From Acidobacteriota bacterium (GTDB lineage: Bacteria; Acidobacteriota; Thermoanaerobaculia; Multivoradales; UBA5704): a stretch of DNA of 64,000 nucleotides. The stretch covers positions 224,001 to 288,000 of the forward strand of contig JBDTZG010000001.1 in NCBI GenBank assembly GCA_040005235.1, given 5' to 3'. Made by a program: the position numbers and the translations under genes. The notes under the pieces are model-generated. The model made no database searches. It was not told where the DNA came from and was given only the letters and a program-made list of their open reading frames with translations. This document shows positions 9,561 to 49,032 of this stretch, one piece after another. How positions within the stretch are numbered: the first letter of the stretch is position 1; each line of letters starts with the position of its first letter.

Positions 9561-9698
9561 GGCGAAATCTCCTTTGAGTCTCGACGCACGAACGCGTCGA
9601 GGGCAATTCCGGAGATCGCGGGGGTAAAGCGTCGTCGGGGAAAGCGTCCGGCGGTACTAACTAGAATTGAGGGCGAAGACCCCCATGCACCGTTCGGA

Positions 9699-9839
9699 CT
9701 CATCTTCCGGCGAACCGCTCGACCCGGAGCAAAAAATCTCCGGAGGGTTTCCGTTGGATTTGGCACCACTGCAAGGGATTTCTCCCTCGAAGGTTGCCCC
9801 GGCGTCTGCGGGCCAATTCCCTCAGCCGGTCTCGATGAG
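9699..9839 (-). ncRNA. SAM-I riboswitch (S-box)
   Basis: Minus strand reads CTCATCGAGA..GGCTGAGGGA.TTGGCCC...GCAACC...GGTGCCAAATCC...GGAAGATGAG with P1 CTCATC/GATGAG; lies upstream of hom-metX-metB. Confidence 0.93.
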
Positions 9840-9885
9840 CAGGCGGATTGTGCGGGGAAGGGACGGAGTTGTCAAACGGTGGTCG

Positions 9886-44470: not shown

Positions 44471-47011
44471 TTGCGTAAACCACCCTCAGACGACGCGCCT
44501 TCGCGGCGCGCGCCGAAGGAATCTTTCGGTGTCCCCCAGAACGCCGTCGTTTCTGCGGCGCCGGCCGCGGGCCCGGGAGCCGACCGGTTTGTCTGCATCC
44601 ACGGGCACTTCTATCAACCCCCGCGGGAAAACCCCTGGCTCGAAGCGATCGAGCGGCAGCCTTCGGCGCGGCCGTACCACGATTGGAACGAGCGGATCAG
44701 CGCGGAGTGCTATGCCGTCAACGCGCGGGCTCGGGTGTTGGACGAACGGGGACGGCTGGTGCGGCTGCTCGACAACTACTCGCGGATCAGCTTCAACTTC
44801 GGCCCGACGCTGCTCGCCTGGATGGAGCGGGCCGATCCGGAGACCTATGCCGCGATCCTTGGCGCCGACCGGAAGAGCGTCGAGCGCTCGGGGCACGGCG
44901 CGGCGCTCGCGCAGGCGCATGGCCATTTGATCCTGCCGTTGGCGAACACGCGCGACAAGCGGACGCAGGTACTCTGGGGGATCGCTGACTTCCGTCATCG
45001 GTTCGGCCGCGCTCCCGAGGGGATGTGGCTCGCGGAGACCGCGGTCGACGTCGAGACGCTGGAGGTGCTCGCGGAGTGCGGCATCAAGTTCACGATCTTG
45101 GCTCCGCATCAGGCGGCCCGGGTGCGCCCGACGGGGGAGAAGACCTGGCGGGAGGTGCCGGGCGCCTCGATCGATCCCTCGCGCGCTTACTCTGCGGTGC
45201 TCCCTTCGGGGCGCGAGATCGCCTTGTTCTTCTACGACGGGCCGCTCTCCCGCTCGATCGCGTTCGAGGGGATGCTCCACAGCGGCGACCTGTTCGCCGA
45301 GCAGCTGGCCGGGGCGTTTCCCTTGCGGGGTGGGGCGAAGCTGGTCCATGTCGCGACCGACGGCGAGAGCTACGGCCATCACCATCGGCACGGCGAGATG
45401 GCGCTCGCCGCCACTCTGTTGCGTCTGGAAGGGCGCGGTCTCGCGCAAGTGGTCCATTACGGCGAATTTCTGGCGCTTCATCCGTCGGAGTGGCAGGTCG
45501 AGATCGTACCGAACACCTCGTGGAGCTGCGCCCACGGCATCGAGCGGTGGCGCTCGGATTGCGGCTGCAACGCGGGGGGCGGCCCGGGATGGAACCAGAC
45601 CTGGCGCGCGCCGCTGCGCCAGGCGCTCGACGACCTGCGCGACCGGTTGGCGGTGCGCTATGAGCGCGCCGCGGTCGACCTGCTTTTCGACCCATGGCGG
45701 GCGCGCGACGCTTATATCGACGTCGTGCTCGACCGCTCGGAAACAACGCTCGACCAGTTCCTCGCGGCCCAAGCGCGCTGGCCGCTCAAAGCGGCCGAGC
45801 GGGTGCGGGTGAGAAAGCTCCTTGAGCTGGAGCGCCAGGCCATGGCGATGTTTACCAGCTGCGGCTGGTTCTTCAGCGACCTCGCCGGGATCGAGACGCG
45901 CCAGGTGTTGCTCCATGCCGGGCGGGCGATCGAGCTGGCGGAAGAGCTATTGGGCGAGCCGTTCGAGCCGGAGTTTTTAGCGGCCCTCGCCGCCGCGCGG
46001 AGCAACGACCCGAAGTTCGGCGATGGGCGGGCGATCTATCAGGCATCGGTCAAGCCGGCGCGCGTGGCGCTTTCGGCGGTCGCCGCCCACGATGCGATTG
46101 CCGCGCTGTTCTCTCGCCCCGCCGAGGCCGCCGAGCCGGGGTTGGAAGAAGGGCGGATCTACGCCTTTACCGTCGCCCGCCGGATCTTGAGGCGCGGCAA
46201 CGGCGGGCCGCTCAAGCTGCTGCTCGCCGAGGTGGACGTCACCTCCGAAATCACCGGCGAAAGCGGCGGGTTCACCTACGCGGCGTTCGCCTGGGGCGAC
46301 CCGAACGTCCAAGTAGGGGTTCGGCCGCGCCTCGGACCGGCGCTCGAGCCGCAAGAGATCGCCGAGGTCGAAGAGGCGCTCCGGCTGGCCGATCCGGCGC
46401 AGGTGGTGCGCTGGCTCGACCGGCGGTTTCCGGTCCAGCACGCGCTCGACGCCCTGTTCGGCGACGACCGCGAGCGGCTGCTCGAGCGGATCCTGCGCGC
46501 GACGATCGAAGAGGTGGAAGGCCAGGGGCGCGAACAGTTCGAGCGCCACGCCCCGCTGATGCGCCGGCTGGCCGGAGTGGGTCTCGCCTTGCCCGGTGCG
46601 CTCCGGAGCGCGGCCGAGATGGCGATCTACGCCGAGTTGAAGCACGCCTTGCGCGATGCGGGGAGCGATCTCGCCGAGATCCGCCGTCGGCTGATCGAGG
46701 TACGCGATTGGGGTCTGGCGCTCGATCGCGAGGGGGTGCGCTACCTGCTGGAGCCGGCGATGACGGCGCAAGCCGAGCGGCTGCGTCGCGATCCACTCGA
46801 CGCCGGGGCGGCGATCCGGCTGGAGGCGCTGCTCGACCTGGCGGGCGCGCTGCCGTTCGCGCTCGACCATCTGCCGACCCAGGTCGCCCTCTATCGGCTG
46901 TTCGAGGAGCGCGCCGACCTGCTGGTCGAGCGGGCGGAGGAGGATCGGGAGGGGGCCGAGGCCCTCGCGCGGCTGGAGCGGTTGGCCGAGCGGCTGGCGA
47001 TTCGACTTTGA
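44471..47011 (+). CDS. Glycoside hydrolase family 57 with DUF3536
   Basis: HGHFYQPPRENPW, SFNFGPTLL, GMWLAET, ATDGESYGHH, SWSCAHG, MFTSCGWFF. Confidence 0.9.
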   Translation: MRKPPSDDAPSRRAPKESFGVPQNAVVSAAPAAGPGADRFVCIHGHFYQPPRENPWLEAIERQPSARPYHDWNERISAECYAVNARARVLDERGRLVRLLDNYSRISFNFGPTLLAWMERADPETYAAILGADRKSVERSGHGAALAQAHGHLILPLANTRDKRTQVLWGIADFRHRFGRAPEGMWLAETAVDVETLEVLAECGIKFTILAPHQAARVRPTGEKTWREVPGASIDPSRAYSAVLPSGREIALFFYDGPLSRSIAFEGMLHSGDLFAEQLAGAFPLRGGAKLVHVATDGESYGHHHRHGEMALAATLLRLEGRGLAQVVHYGEFLALHPSEWQVEIVPNTSWSCAHGIERWRSDCGCNAGGGPGWNQTWRAPLRQALDDLRDRLAVRYERAAVDLLFDPWRARDAYIDVVLDRSETTLDQFLAAQARWPLKAAERVRVRKLLELERQAMAMFTSCGWFFSDLAGIETRQVLLHAGRAIELAEELLGEPFEPEFLAALAAARSNDPKFGDGRAIYQASVKPARVALSAVAAHDAIAALFSRPAEAAEPGLEEGRIYAFTVARRILRRGNGGPLKLLLAEVDVTSEITGESGGFTYAAFAWGDPNVQVGVRPRLGPALEPQEIAEVEEALRLADPAQVVRWLDRRFPVQHALDALFGDDRERLLERILRATIEEVEGQGREQFERHAPLMRRLAGVGLALPGALRSAAEMAIYAELKHALRDAGSDLAEIRRRLIEVRDWGLALDREGVRYLLEPAMTAQAERLRRDPLDAGAAIRLEALLDLAGALPFALDHLPTQVALYRLFEERADLLVERAEEDREGAEALARLERLAERLAIRL

Positions 47012-47077
47012 TGCCGCGCCAAAAACCGGCGTCCGGCCAATCCGGCAGGTCGGAAAGCGCGCCAGAAAGACATCCAG

Positions 47078-47108
47078 AAACGAGAAGACCCCCCTCGGAA
47101 GGGGGGTC
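47078..47108 (-). terminator. Intrinsic terminator-like hairpin
   Basis: GACCCCCC-TTCCGA-GGGGGGTC followed by TTCTCGTTTCT on the minus strand. Confidence 0.65.
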
Positions 47109-47274
47109 GATACGGGGTTGGTTCCGTCTCTCCGGTGGGATTTTTGGCTTCACCCCTGTAGACAAGGGGAATTCGGAGGACTGTGAGACGGGGTGAGATC
47201 GTGAGATCTCTTTTTTAGGTGGGATGGTAGTTGGTAGGTCGGTTCCTTCCCCGTGGGATATCTCGTTGACTGAC
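47078..47274 (-). ncRNA. Candidate sigma54-dependent small RNA
   Basis: Bounded by a consensus -24/-12 promoter and a terminator hairpin; no credible ORF; six RTCYCAC motifs. Confidence 0.55.
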
Positions 47275-47284
47275 TTTCACTAGA

Positions 47285-47300
47285 AGCAAGCGGTGTGCCA
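47285..47300 (-). promoter_or_regulatory. sigma54 (-24/-12) promoter
   Basis: Minus strand TGGCAC-ACCGC-TTGCT matches the TGGCAC-N5-TTGCW consensus. Confidence 0.7.
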
Positions 47301-47328
47301 GGTCGATTCGCCGCTTCCGAGGGTCTCT

Positions 47329-49032
47329 TTACTCCCGACGGGACAGCAGGAATCGGACCAGGAACCCTGCCGACAGCGCCCCGGGCAGCAGCGCCCATAG
47401 ATTGCCCGCGGTGCCCAAAAGGGCCGCCGCGATGGCCAGGCTCCCGGCCAGAACGGCCCAACTGAGGCGCTGCATCACTTTCTCCATCCGCACGGCGATG
47501 CGGCGCGCCTCCCGGCCGGGCTCGCTGCGGATCTGGAGGGCGCCCCTTTCCGCGCGCGCCAGGAAGGCATCGAGCCGGCGCGGCAGACCGAACGCCGACC
47601 GTGCGCCGGCCCAGACCTCGGCAAGTTGGGCGGCAAAATCGCGCGATATCTCTTCTTTGGCGATCCGCTCGGCGAACGGCAGCGCCTCGGCCCAGGGGTC
47701 GAAATCGGGATCTAGACCGGTGGCGAGCCCTGCCAGCAGCCCCACCGCGCGCGACACGAACAACAGCTCCACCTGCACCTGAAACGGCATTTCGTACAGT
47801 AGGTCGCGGTACTTCCGCAGAAAATACCGAGCTTCGGACATGGCGACGTCGCGCAGCTTGCCGACGCTCACGCCCCAGAACCGGGCGAACAGCTCGGCGT
47901 GGACCTCCTCCAATCGGTCGAGGTCGGCGTCTGGCAGCAGCACGCCCGCCGCGGCGTAGGACTGGACCAGTCGCGCGGCGTCCCGCGTGCCCAGGGCGAT
48001 CGCGTATTCGCGGAGCGCGCCGCGCAGGTGGGACGGGACGGTCGCCATCATGCCGAAGTCGATGTAGATGATCCTGAACGGCCGTCCCGTGCCGGTCTCC
48101 GGCGGCGGATCGTCATCGTCGTCTAAAGGCCGGACGAACAGATTGCCCGGGTGGGGGTCAGCGTGGACGAACGACAGCTCGAAGATCTGGCGCATGGTCG
48201 AGCGGAACAGCCGGCGCGCGACTGCGGCCGGATCGATCCCGGCCTCGATCAGCCCGGCGCGGTCATTCACCTTGAGTGCGGTGACGTTCTCGGCCGCGAG
48301 CACCCGGCGGGACGACGCTTCGCGAAAGATTCGCGGCGCGCCAATCCCGGGATCGGCGGCGAACAGCTCGGCGAAGCGTTCCGCGTTGTCCGCCTCCTTC
48401 ACGAGGTCGAGTTCCGCGCGCGTGGTGGTCGAAATCTCCTCGGCGAGCCGTTCGAGGTCGACCCGGCGGCGGATCTTCCGGGAGGCCCGGAGCAGGCGGA
48501 TCGCAAGCGCCGCCGCCGCGAGATCCGTCTCGACCAGGATCTCGATCCCAGGACGGAGCACCTTGACCACCGCGGCCCGGCCGTCCAAGAGGGTCGCCGG
48601 ATGGACCTGAGCAAGCGACGCGGCGCCGAGGACTTGCGGCGAGACCTCGGAAAACGGCGAGCGGCCGGGAAACTCTTCCTCGATCCGCGCCTGGATGGCG
48701 GCGAACGGGGCTGGAGGCACCTCGTCCTGGAGCCCGGCCAGCTCCGCGGCGATCTCCGCGGGGAGGATGTCCACCCGGGTGCTCAGGAATTGGCCGATCT
48801 TGATCAGCACCCCGCCCATCTCGGCCGCGAGCCCGCGATACCTCCGGGCGATCGCCAGCCAGCGCTCGGCGGGAGAGCGGCGCAAGGGGGCGAGCGGGGG
48901 AAACGCCAAAATCACGTCCCACCAGAACGCATGGACGAACGTCCGCAGCACGAACCGGCGCAACTTTCGATACCGGCGCCGATCGCGGGCCGGCGGGGGA
49001 GAGGGCGAGGGATCTGAAATTGTCGGGGTCAA
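47329..49032 (-). CDS. ABC1/UbiB (AarF) family atypical kinase
   Basis: IKIGQFLSTRVD, LQDEVPP, AASLAQVH, VVKV, HADPHPGN, IDFGM. Confidence 0.92.
   Translation of the reverse strand: MTPTISDPSPSPPPARDRRRYRKLRRFVLRTFVHAFWWDVILAFPPLAPLRRSPAERWLAIARRYRGLAAEMGGVLIKIGQFLSTRVDILPAEIAAELAGLQDEVPPAPFAAIQARIEEEFPGRSPFSEVSPQVLGAASLAQVHPATLLDGRAAVVKVLRPGIEILVETDLAAAALAIRLLRASRKIRRRVDLERLAEEISTTTRAELDLVKEADNAERFAELFAADPGIGAPRIFREASSRRVLAAENVTALKVNDRAGLIEAGIDPAAVARRLFRSTMRQIFELSFVHADPHPGNLFVRPLDDDDDPPPETGTGRPFRIIYIDFGMMATVPSHLRGALREYAIALGTRDAARLVQSYAAAGVLLPDADLDRLEEVHAELFARFWGVSVGKLRDVAMSEARYFLRKYRDLLYEMPFQVQVELLFVSRAVGLLAGLATGLDPDFDPWAEALPFAERIAKEEISRDFAAQLAEVWAGARSAFGLPRRLDAFLARAERGALQIRSEPGREARRIAVRMEKVMQRLSWAVLAGSLAIAAALLGTAGNLWALLPGALSAGFLVRFLLSRRE

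Follow-up and report, generated by a model that had tools for sequence, protein, structure and literature searches.

The stretch of DNA analysed here (the window: 64,000 nucleotides of contig JBDTZG010000001.1 from an Acidobacteriota genome, assembly GCA_040005235.1, the source genome in the following) contains a gap into which two protein genes run from opposite sides. A gene for a protein with GH57 and DUF3536 domains ends there on the plus strand and an ABC1 atypical kinase-like gene on the minus strand, i.e. the gap is bounded by the stop codons of both. Inside it we found a sigma-54-type -24/-12 promoter, a structured RNA of approximately 197 nt and an intrinsic terminator, all on the minus strand (Table 1). 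An earlier reading of the letters alone (the sequence-only reading) had proposed this arrangement: a candidate sigma-54-dependent small RNA (sRNA) between convergent genes, with a consensus promoter, a transcription start near 47274 and a GC-rich hairpin terminator about 195 nt downstream. The convergent neighbours were confirmed, the promoter proved to be an exact match at 47300-47285 and the terminator hairpin was located at 47108-47087 (-). With GG of the promoter counted as -24/-25 the predicted start is at ~47274.

The interval is poorer in GC than its surroundings, as had been stated (0.55 compared to 0.63-0.71 across the window), and the predicted transcript is C-rich (C 69, A 53, G 40, U 35). 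No AUG is present in the ~197-nt RNA. Open reading frames listed mechanically over the gap were off-frame run-ons of the flanking genes and were discarded as coding candidates. The stretch was then followed into relatives. BLAST against 41 related genomes detected it in all seven other members of the genus and in one genome of a second genus. In an alignment of the eight congeneric genomes identity was almost complete over a block that starts some 2 nt ahead of the -24 element and reaches down to the U-run of the terminator; both flanks diverged and identity collapsed outside the block. Within it the congeners differed by one-base insertions and deletions. Because of these indels, together with the missing AUG, a reading frame in the RNA is argued against, and the earlier statement that the gap holds no credible open reading frame was upheld. 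We have little doubt that 47274-47078 (-) of the window is a real, independently transcribed RNA gene, as had been suggested for the minus strand; a sigma-54-type promoter is conserved ahead of the copies of this RNA in other genomes, which are described below.

Table 1. Positions of the RNA gene, its parts, its neighbours and the matching library contigs in the window.
Feature	Position	Strand	Remarks
Sigma-54-type -24/-12 promoter	47300-47285	-	TGGCAC-ACCGC-TTGCT; exact TGGCAC-N5-TTGCT match
RNA gene, predicted primary transcript	47078..47274	-	~197 nt; start from promoter geometry, end from terminator
Core matching the covariance models R1 and R2	47108..47269	-	201.5 bits (R1), 153.1 bits (R2)
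CC[ACU]ACC box 1, CCUACC	47233..47238	-	unpaired; conserved across the RNA family (columns 43/47)
CC[ACU]ACC box 2, CCCACC	47218..47223	-	unpaired, just 5' of H3 (column 71)
Hairpin H3	47195..47210	-	GAGAUC / 4-nt loop / GAUCUC; conserved pairing
CCUCC, anti-Shine-Dalgarno-like	47175..47179	-	unpaired; source genome
Hairpin H6	47153..47169	-	CCCCU / loop / AGGGG; predicted on model-fitted and independent alignments
CC[ACU]ACC box 3, CCCACC	47134..47139	-	5' edge of H7; in 73/94 copies (column 234)
Small hairpin H7	47124..47135	-	CCG-GAGAGA-CGG; invariant in the genus
CC[ACU]ACC box 4, CCAACC	47116..47121	-	3' strand of closing region
Intrinsic terminator hairpin	47087..47108	-	terminator scan: 9 pairs, 7 G-C; then UCUUCUCGUUUCU to ~47076
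GH57 + DUF3536 gene, convergent neighbour	44471-47011	+	Pfam PF12055, 290 bits; PF03065, 62 bits
ABC1 atypical kinase-like gene, same-strand upstream neighbour	47329-49032	-	Pfam PF03109, 189 bits
Library contig, run X1	47112-47263		152 nt; whole contig
Library contig, run X2	47117-47272		156 nt; whole contig; end close to predicted +1 47274
Library contig, run X4	47137-47302		185 nt; then 19 unlike letters
Library contig, run X6	47111-47246		408 nt; other 272 nt unlike window

Apart from the promoter the 64-kb window had no TGGCAC-N5-TTGCT match, not even at one mismatch; as 0.75 matches are expected at up to one mismatch, this uniqueness is not significant by itself. In the entire source genome the pattern TGGCA[CT]N5TTGC[AT] had 16 matches compared to about 7 expected from composition. 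Because the consensus alone is not rare, the argument for the promoter is carried by conservation. The same element was present at a fixed distance in 9/9 close homologues. We then collected 94 copies of the RNA from 50 loci in 11 genera. GGCA[CT]N5TTGC[AT] was located not more than 75 nt upstream of 88 of these copies, and of 92 when the pattern was relaxed. Controls were clean: the reverse complement gave 0/94, the inside of the RNA 0/94 and shuffled sequences a mean of 0.01. Four occurrences downstream of a copy were the promoters of the next copy in a tandem array, in which each copy carries its own sigma-54-type promoter. The element also preceded 8/8 copies from other families of the order. 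The conservation of the promoter, which had been named as a check, was thus found far beyond the genus. The second check concerned the sigma factor. The source genome possesses rpoN (a 541-codon frame, Sigma54_DBD at 221 bits) and 25 Sigma54_activat matches, 19 of which scored at least 132 bits, corresponding to ~19 strong enhancer-binding-protein (EBP) genes. From these sequence data sigma-54 dependence of the RNA gene appears highly probable.

Of the 16 genome-wide promoter-type matches, three are located within 5.4 kb on another contig of the source genome (C18:197361-202771). This trio may mark a sigma-54-controlled gene cluster.

At its 3' end the terminator stem was kept in 8/8 congeners despite changes in the loop and at the base, and in five of them UUUU follows directly. 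Family-wide a T-run was present within 70 nt downstream of 74 of the 94 copies, and most tandem copies had a terminator-like hairpin with a T-run. The RNA itself is predicted to be well folded. The minimum free energy of the window copy was -68.2 kcal/mol (z = -3.77). On the model alignment of 93 distinct copies 83.3% of the cells were paired and 24 of 34 pairs showed changes on both sides. The covariation score was 0.182 compared to 0.106 in shuffles, of which 0/500 reached 0.182, and dropped to 0.03-0.08 with slid partners. The best-supported helices are the closing helix, H3 and H6. H3 was paired in 99.3% of the cells over the 93 distinct sequences, with double changes in four of its six pairs, and was again predicted from an independent MAFFT/RNAalifold alignment of 26 diverse copies, with double changes in three pairs. 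Among the congeners its loop varied (UCAC, UUCG, CUCG, UUCC, ACGA) and the stem was kept. In the distant copy L079 both arms of H6 are altered and complementarity is retained. H7 was weakly supported across the RNA family (66.8% of cells paired).

A terminator-like site was also noticed on the plus strand, at 47195-47210 followed by T6 (47195-47216 +). It is the complement of H3 plus an A-run that is specific to the genus, and because of this specificity it was rejected as a terminator of the system. It could serve as a weak bidirectional stop for the transcript of the GH57 gene.

A glimpse of expression came from public sequence archives. Twenty-four runs share words with a 601-nt stretch around the RNA, at shares of 0.08-0.21; 21 are recorded as RNA and the runs stem from 21 studies. 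Four RNA libraries from four soil studies were mapped, and the other 20 runs are taken as evidence of neither expression nor habitat. Each of the 4/4 mapped libraries contained one contig on the stretch, and in each case it was located on the RNA (all within 47111-47302; Table 1). These contigs carry the UUCG-type loops of relatives. Cover over 46900-47110 and 47303-47500 was nil in the four libraries, which is not evidence of silence since the data are contigs passed through a filter that leaves records out. The contigs fit an abundant short RNA with a 5' end near 47272-47274; this is only a hint.

How widespread is the RNA? Two covariance models were used, R1 built from nine sequences and R2 from the 94 copies. 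With R1 the RNA was detected in 90 of 92 genomes of the taxonomic family and in 11/11 of its genera; the two genomes lacking a match are 93% and 88% complete. Many genomes of the family have two or three copies spaced 250-400 nt apart. In a sample of 151 genomes of the order R2 had matches in 106, a tally that includes one unpublished genome (G333); the matches cover 49 of 63 genera, and each of the 12 families is represented at least once. Two families of the order were nearly empty (2/21 and 1/21 genomes), and two genera had no match (0/8 and 0/19 genomes). In other orders of the class R2 matched 0/114 genomes. In the source genome the R2 search yielded a single true copy. A weak partial R2 match at C118:315424-315514 (-), with 17 bits and an E-value of 0.34 genome-wide or 0.0015 in a small search, may be a chance match or a degenerate fragment.

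A search of Rfam 15 (4227 models) returned no family at gathering threshold for the RNA region. At E-values up to 10, 46900-47450 gave matches to five unrelated families with 13.7-18.1 bits, compared to thresholds of 37-81. Also at 20 loci which hold diverse members of the RNA family there were 0 Rfam matches. Elsewhere in the window only one family passed its gathering threshold, a SAM-I (S box) riboswitch at 9697-9841 (-), with 64.5 bits at a threshold of 44.4. In open-access full text, supplementary files excluded, no report on this RNA or on such a regulatory RNA in Acidobacteriota was encountered. An RNA match in Rfam would have removed the novelty claimed in the sequence-only reading; neither the window copy nor the 20 diverse loci produced one, and the claim of an undescribed sigma-54 sRNA is sustained. 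Judged by its sequences, the element is a self-contained unit of putative promoter, structured RNA and terminator that is conserved across an order. It is, as predicted from these features, a previously uncatalogued, order-wide family of sigma-54-dependent sRNAs of Acidobacteriota, set apart by description from Pxr, the closest known case (see below).

The genomic setting differs between the genus of the window and most other genera. At 47 of 58 loci the next gene downstream of the RNA, or of an array of it, is a mutY-like gene (HhH-GPD + NUDIX_4) in the same orientation, which begins 11-270 nt past the end of the model. Twenty contexts of 20 kb were inspected; in 18 the order is dnaA, RNA(s), mutY, with a convergent gene for a cyclic-nucleotide (cNMP)-binding protein next in 17, and in five rimK and a Zn-protease gene are inserted. 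Outside the window's genus most genera have one to three tandem copies between dnaA and mutY. The ABC1/GH57 setting is confined to the window's genus (8/58 loci). In the source genome dnaA (+), mutY (-) and the cNMP-binding gene are together at C16:1681-4897 as in other genera, and no trace of the RNA was detected between dnaA and mutY (best score 8.1 bits, on the wrong strand). From this distribution we deduce that a single copy is relocated in the window's genus and carries its predicted promoter and terminator along. A quick tree of the 94 copies grouped them mostly by array position and not by genome, which suggests old paralogue types; with ~160 columns and no support values the tree is a hint only.

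The position ahead of mutY raises the question whether the RNA is a cis-acting leader, i.e. a long 5' untranslated region or a promoter-plus-attenuator through which sigma-54 would control the gene that follows (mutY in most genera). The same-strand mutY gene at close distance would fit, as would the lack of an obvious U-run in some proximal copies (20 of 94 copies have no T-run within 70 nt) and the X6 contig which continues beyond the 3' side of the RNA. In the window, however, no same-strand gene follows; a strong hairpin terminates the RNA, and beyond it is the 3' end of the convergent gene. Upstream tandem copies precede the promoter of another copy, not a gene, and the mutY upstream region of the source genome has no copy. 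For the window a mutY leader was rejected on account of the terminator, the convergent neighbour and the lack of a copy ahead of mutY. The relocation with promoter and terminator marks the element as a self-contained unit and speaks against any obligatory role as a leader. Taken together a leader function is very unlikely.

The same setting could indicate a role which depends on the fold. The RNA might be a component of a ribonucleoprotein, resemble a ribozyme, bind a ligand, or regulate replication or repair in connection with its ancestral place at dnaA-mutY. Across the order H3 and H6 have kept the sequence of their stems as well as the pairing, and the location between dnaA and mutY, directly upstream of the latter, is the rule. 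Yet beyond the sequence-conserved stems nothing suggests a catalytic or ligand-binding core, and Rfam offered no match. Furthermore, the link to dnaA and mutY is broken in the window's genus and the RNA was not lost; it is also interrupted by rimK and the Zn-protease gene in the contexts mentioned. The synteny may just mark an old insertion site. We consider a fold-dependent role improbable.

Two elements upstream of the RNA were noted in other genera. In one genus a strongly conserved AT-rich element (TGTAGAAATG, ~22 nt, TTTGTACGAA) precedes the -24 element of the first copy by 110-130 nt (loci L029, L031, L033-L036, L038-L041, L043, L044, L046-L048, L067 and L068). With the RNA array on one side and the divergent Zn-protease/rimK genes on the other, it might act as an enhancer for the RNA or as a promoter/operator of the divergent operon. 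The element was not found in the source genome. Further, GGAAT recurs about 9-10 nt upstream of the -24 GG of mutY-proximal copies at many loci (e.g. L031, L034, L043); in the window's genus GGAAT has neither that spacing nor conservation.

The sequence-only reading had drawn attention to a repeated 7-nt motif, GTGRGAY on the plus strand (RUCYCAC in the RNA), and had regarded the RNA as protein-sponge-like. All six copies were located (47135, 47183, 47193, 47201, 47219 and 47253). The motif occurs 24 times in the window, compared to 24.7 by chance, and six of the 24 on one strand within 125 nt contrast with ~0.02 expected from the window-wide density. The copy at 47201-47207 consists of 3 nt of the 5' arm of H3 plus loop and is present in one of eight congeners, the source genome only; that at 47193-47199 is mostly the 3' arm of H3. 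The copy at 47183-47189 is kept in 4/8 congeners, and three AUCCCAC copies are kept in 7/8. Across the RNA family RUCYCAC averages 0.96 per RNA, and four or more are present in only 7 of the 94 copies, compared to six in the window copy. RUCYCAC as written is specific to the window's genus. Conservation of the motif in relatives, which had also been named as a check, held for the three AUCCCAC copies among close relatives and failed for the RNA family at large.

The motif bears on the possibility that the conserved entity is a DNA element. It might be an array of sites bound by protein, or it might belong to an origin of replication next to dnaA, in which the ATCCCAC repeats would resemble DnaA boxes and be accompanied by GATC sites. 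The ancestral position adjoins dnaA, there are 2.27 GATC sites per copy, and the motif resembles the DnaA box, the consensus of which we take to be TTWTNCACA. DnaA boxes with up to one mismatch, however, numbered 0.096 per copy compared to 0.13 in shuffles and 0 in the window copy, and the GC skew does not turn near 47 kb. As DnaA boxes are not enriched and the skew has no turn, the element is not an origin. Moreover, it has moved away from dnaA in the window's genus, and an oriented promoter and terminator, pairing-preserving changes and contigs from RNA libraries all fit a transcript. A function as DNA is extremely improbable.

A different repeat is shared by the RNA family as a whole. CC[ACU]ACC occurs 2.93 times per RNA compared to 0.68 in dinucleotide shuffles, at least once in all 94 copies, at four or five fixed alignment positions which are mostly unpaired. 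Box 4 of the window copy is found in 7/8 congeners and reads CCACCC in the eighth. Because the copies are related, the enrichment measures conservation and not independent gain. Known sponge signatures were absent. GGA, the mark of Csr/Rsm-type sponges, is depleted (3.16 per RNA compared to 4.46 in shuffles), no CsrA gene was matched in the source genome, which is rated 100% complete, and threefold runs of ARN triplets as in a CrcZ-type sponge are not enriched (0.38 per RNA compared to 0.61).

Hence a sponge deduced from the six RUCYCAC copies is not supported: two of them are hairpin parts, the motif is genus-specific and the GGA, ARN and CsrA signatures are missing. Because a conserved repeated box exists, a decoy for some partner is still conceivable. 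In such a scheme three to five unpaired CC[ACU]ACC boxes between hairpins would titrate an RNA-binding protein, tandem copies would raise the dose, and sigma-54 control would time release or capture of the protein. The fixed positions of the box, its presence in every copy, the one to three tandem paralogues per genome and the precedent of CrcZ, an RNA which according to excerpts of a published report sequesters the protein Hfq (PMC4063720), speak for it. On the other hand there is no candidate protein, neither the Csr-type nor the Hfq distal-face (ARN) signature is present, the enrichment over shuffles reflects kinship of the copies, and two of the six motif copies that first raised the idea belong to one hairpin. 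A protein decoy is thus unlikely on balance. Improbable, too, is a sigma-54-gated decoy of a new kind, in which the boxes of the tandem RNAs capture an order-specific RNA-binding protein or a G-rich RNA. If this were true, the RNA would be a global switch like Csr or Crc made of different parts, and the ancestral dnaA-mutY location could mean that replication or the avoidance of mutations is controlled when the inducing signal is present.

What, then, does the RNA do? We propose that RNA polymerase with sigma-54 would transcribe the gene from the -24/-12 promoter at 47300-47285 once a signal-activated EBP is present, and that transcription would end at the hairpin at 47108-47087. Since sigma-54 and an activated EBP would both be needed, the RNA presumably reports one specific signal. 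It would act in trans as a post-transcriptional regulator, probably by base-pairing, which is the likeliest of the readings considered. The unpaired C-rich boxes, CC[ACU]ACC and, in the source genome, CCUCC, may pair with G-rich stretches around the ribosome-binding sites of targets, and Hfq would probably assist by binding the terminator and the U-tail. An hfq gene is present in the source genome (C49:18368-18556, 61.9 bits) and the terminator is followed by a U-rich tail, two features expected of an Hfq-associated base-pairing sRNA. The complement of UCCCACC was detected in 24 of 3672 crude initiation windows compared to 7 of 3672 control windows from coding regions. For UCCUCCG, a 7-mer spanning CCUCC, the complement CGGAGGA was detected in 79 of 3672 initiation windows compared to 24 of 3672 controls. 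Base-pairing as the mode of action has slightly less than an even chance in our estimate. For the explanation as a whole, i.e. a stand-alone sigma-54-driven gene for a structured RNA which acts in trans through C-rich boxes with the aid of Hfq, the chances are about even.

A number of observations weigh against this explanation. Concerning the promoter, the alignment of the eight congeners revealed no recognisable enhancer site over the upstream 270 nt, where conservation was of the coding type expected for ABC1 only, and conservation within the genus begins only at the promoter. EBP, rpoN or hfq genes were located within 10 kb in 0/20 contexts, and the nearest EBP gene on the contig of the window is 238 kb away. 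Concerning the RNA, the U-run behind the terminator is interrupted in the source genome, support is weak for helices beyond H1, H3 and H6, the pair counts over 93 copies come from a model-fitted alignment, and the independent MAFFT/RNAalifold alignment recovers only 10 pairs (H3 + H6). Concerning expression, the library contigs are unstranded and RNA libraries may contain DNA; the X4 contig extends across the promoter to 47302, and the X6 contig runs 272 nt past 47111 into sequence unlike the window. For these reasons read-through or DNA in relatives is possible. Concerning targets, the 3-4-fold enrichment of the 7-mers is generic to G-runs of the Shine-Dalgarno type, and the count was made with crude gene predictions that cover 65% of the genome. 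Finally, four conserved copies of one box are as compatible with a decoy as with an RNA that pairs through multiple seeds.

Acidobacteriota are an abundant, mostly uncultured phylum of soil bacteria. What is gained is a well-delimited RNA family across an order, with a covariance model, and an unusually clean promoter signature which would place an RNA family under sigma-54 control, along with hints of RNA abundance in soil metatranscriptomes. It is an entry point to sigma-54 signalling and post-transcriptional control in these Acidobacteriota and, with its tandem paralogues and one relocation, a natural case for the study of sRNA gene evolution. A sigma-54-driven sRNA with paralogues is already known in kind; the finding is useful rather than startling, unless the RNA is indeed a decoy.

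None of the known RNAs Pxr, NrsZ, CrcZ, Qrr and GlmY was among the five sub-threshold Rfam matches in 46900-47450. Qrr1-5 of Vibrio and GlmY of enterobacteria are sigma-54-dependent sRNAs that are Hfq-linked or act as decoys. The Qrr RNAs are several paralogues of ~100 nt with a shared seed, dispersed rather than in tandem, and GlmY acts by mimicry for RapZ. CrcZ and CrcY of Pseudomonas are sigma-54-dependent as well, and sequestration proceeds via repeated unpaired A-rich (ARN-type) motifs. In excerpts of the report on CrcZ the sequestered protein is Hfq (PMC4063720). In contrast, the RNA described here has C-rich boxes, and its ARN runs are below shuffle level. NrsZ of Pseudomonas aeruginosa, as portrayed in part of the original publication, is similar in its induction through RpoN and the enhancer-binding two-component system NtrB/C, in its repeated similar modules and in its post-transcriptional action on rhlA; it is dissimilar in that one transcript is processed into three similar modules, in which the loop motif ACAGGCAG is active (PMC4253122). 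In the RNA of this study each repeat is a gene of its own with its own promoter, and the box CC[ACU]ACC is short and mostly unpaired. Pxr of Myxococcus and Cystobacter comes closest. According to sections of its description, it is sigma-54-promoted, has several stem-loops and is limited to one lineage; most species have a single copy and some genera tandem paralogues, each with its own sigma-54 promoter, and paralogues within a genome diverge more than orthologues between species (PMC5568312). The tree of copies reported above is similar in this respect. The same sections give Pxr a length of ~108 nt and a position directly downstream of nla19, a sigma-54-dependent response-regulator gene, in Myxococcota (PMC5568312). 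Compared by description, the RNA of this study has no EBP gene within 10 kb in any of the 20 contexts, is longer (~160-200 nt) and belongs to the dnaA-mutY locus of Acidobacteriota.

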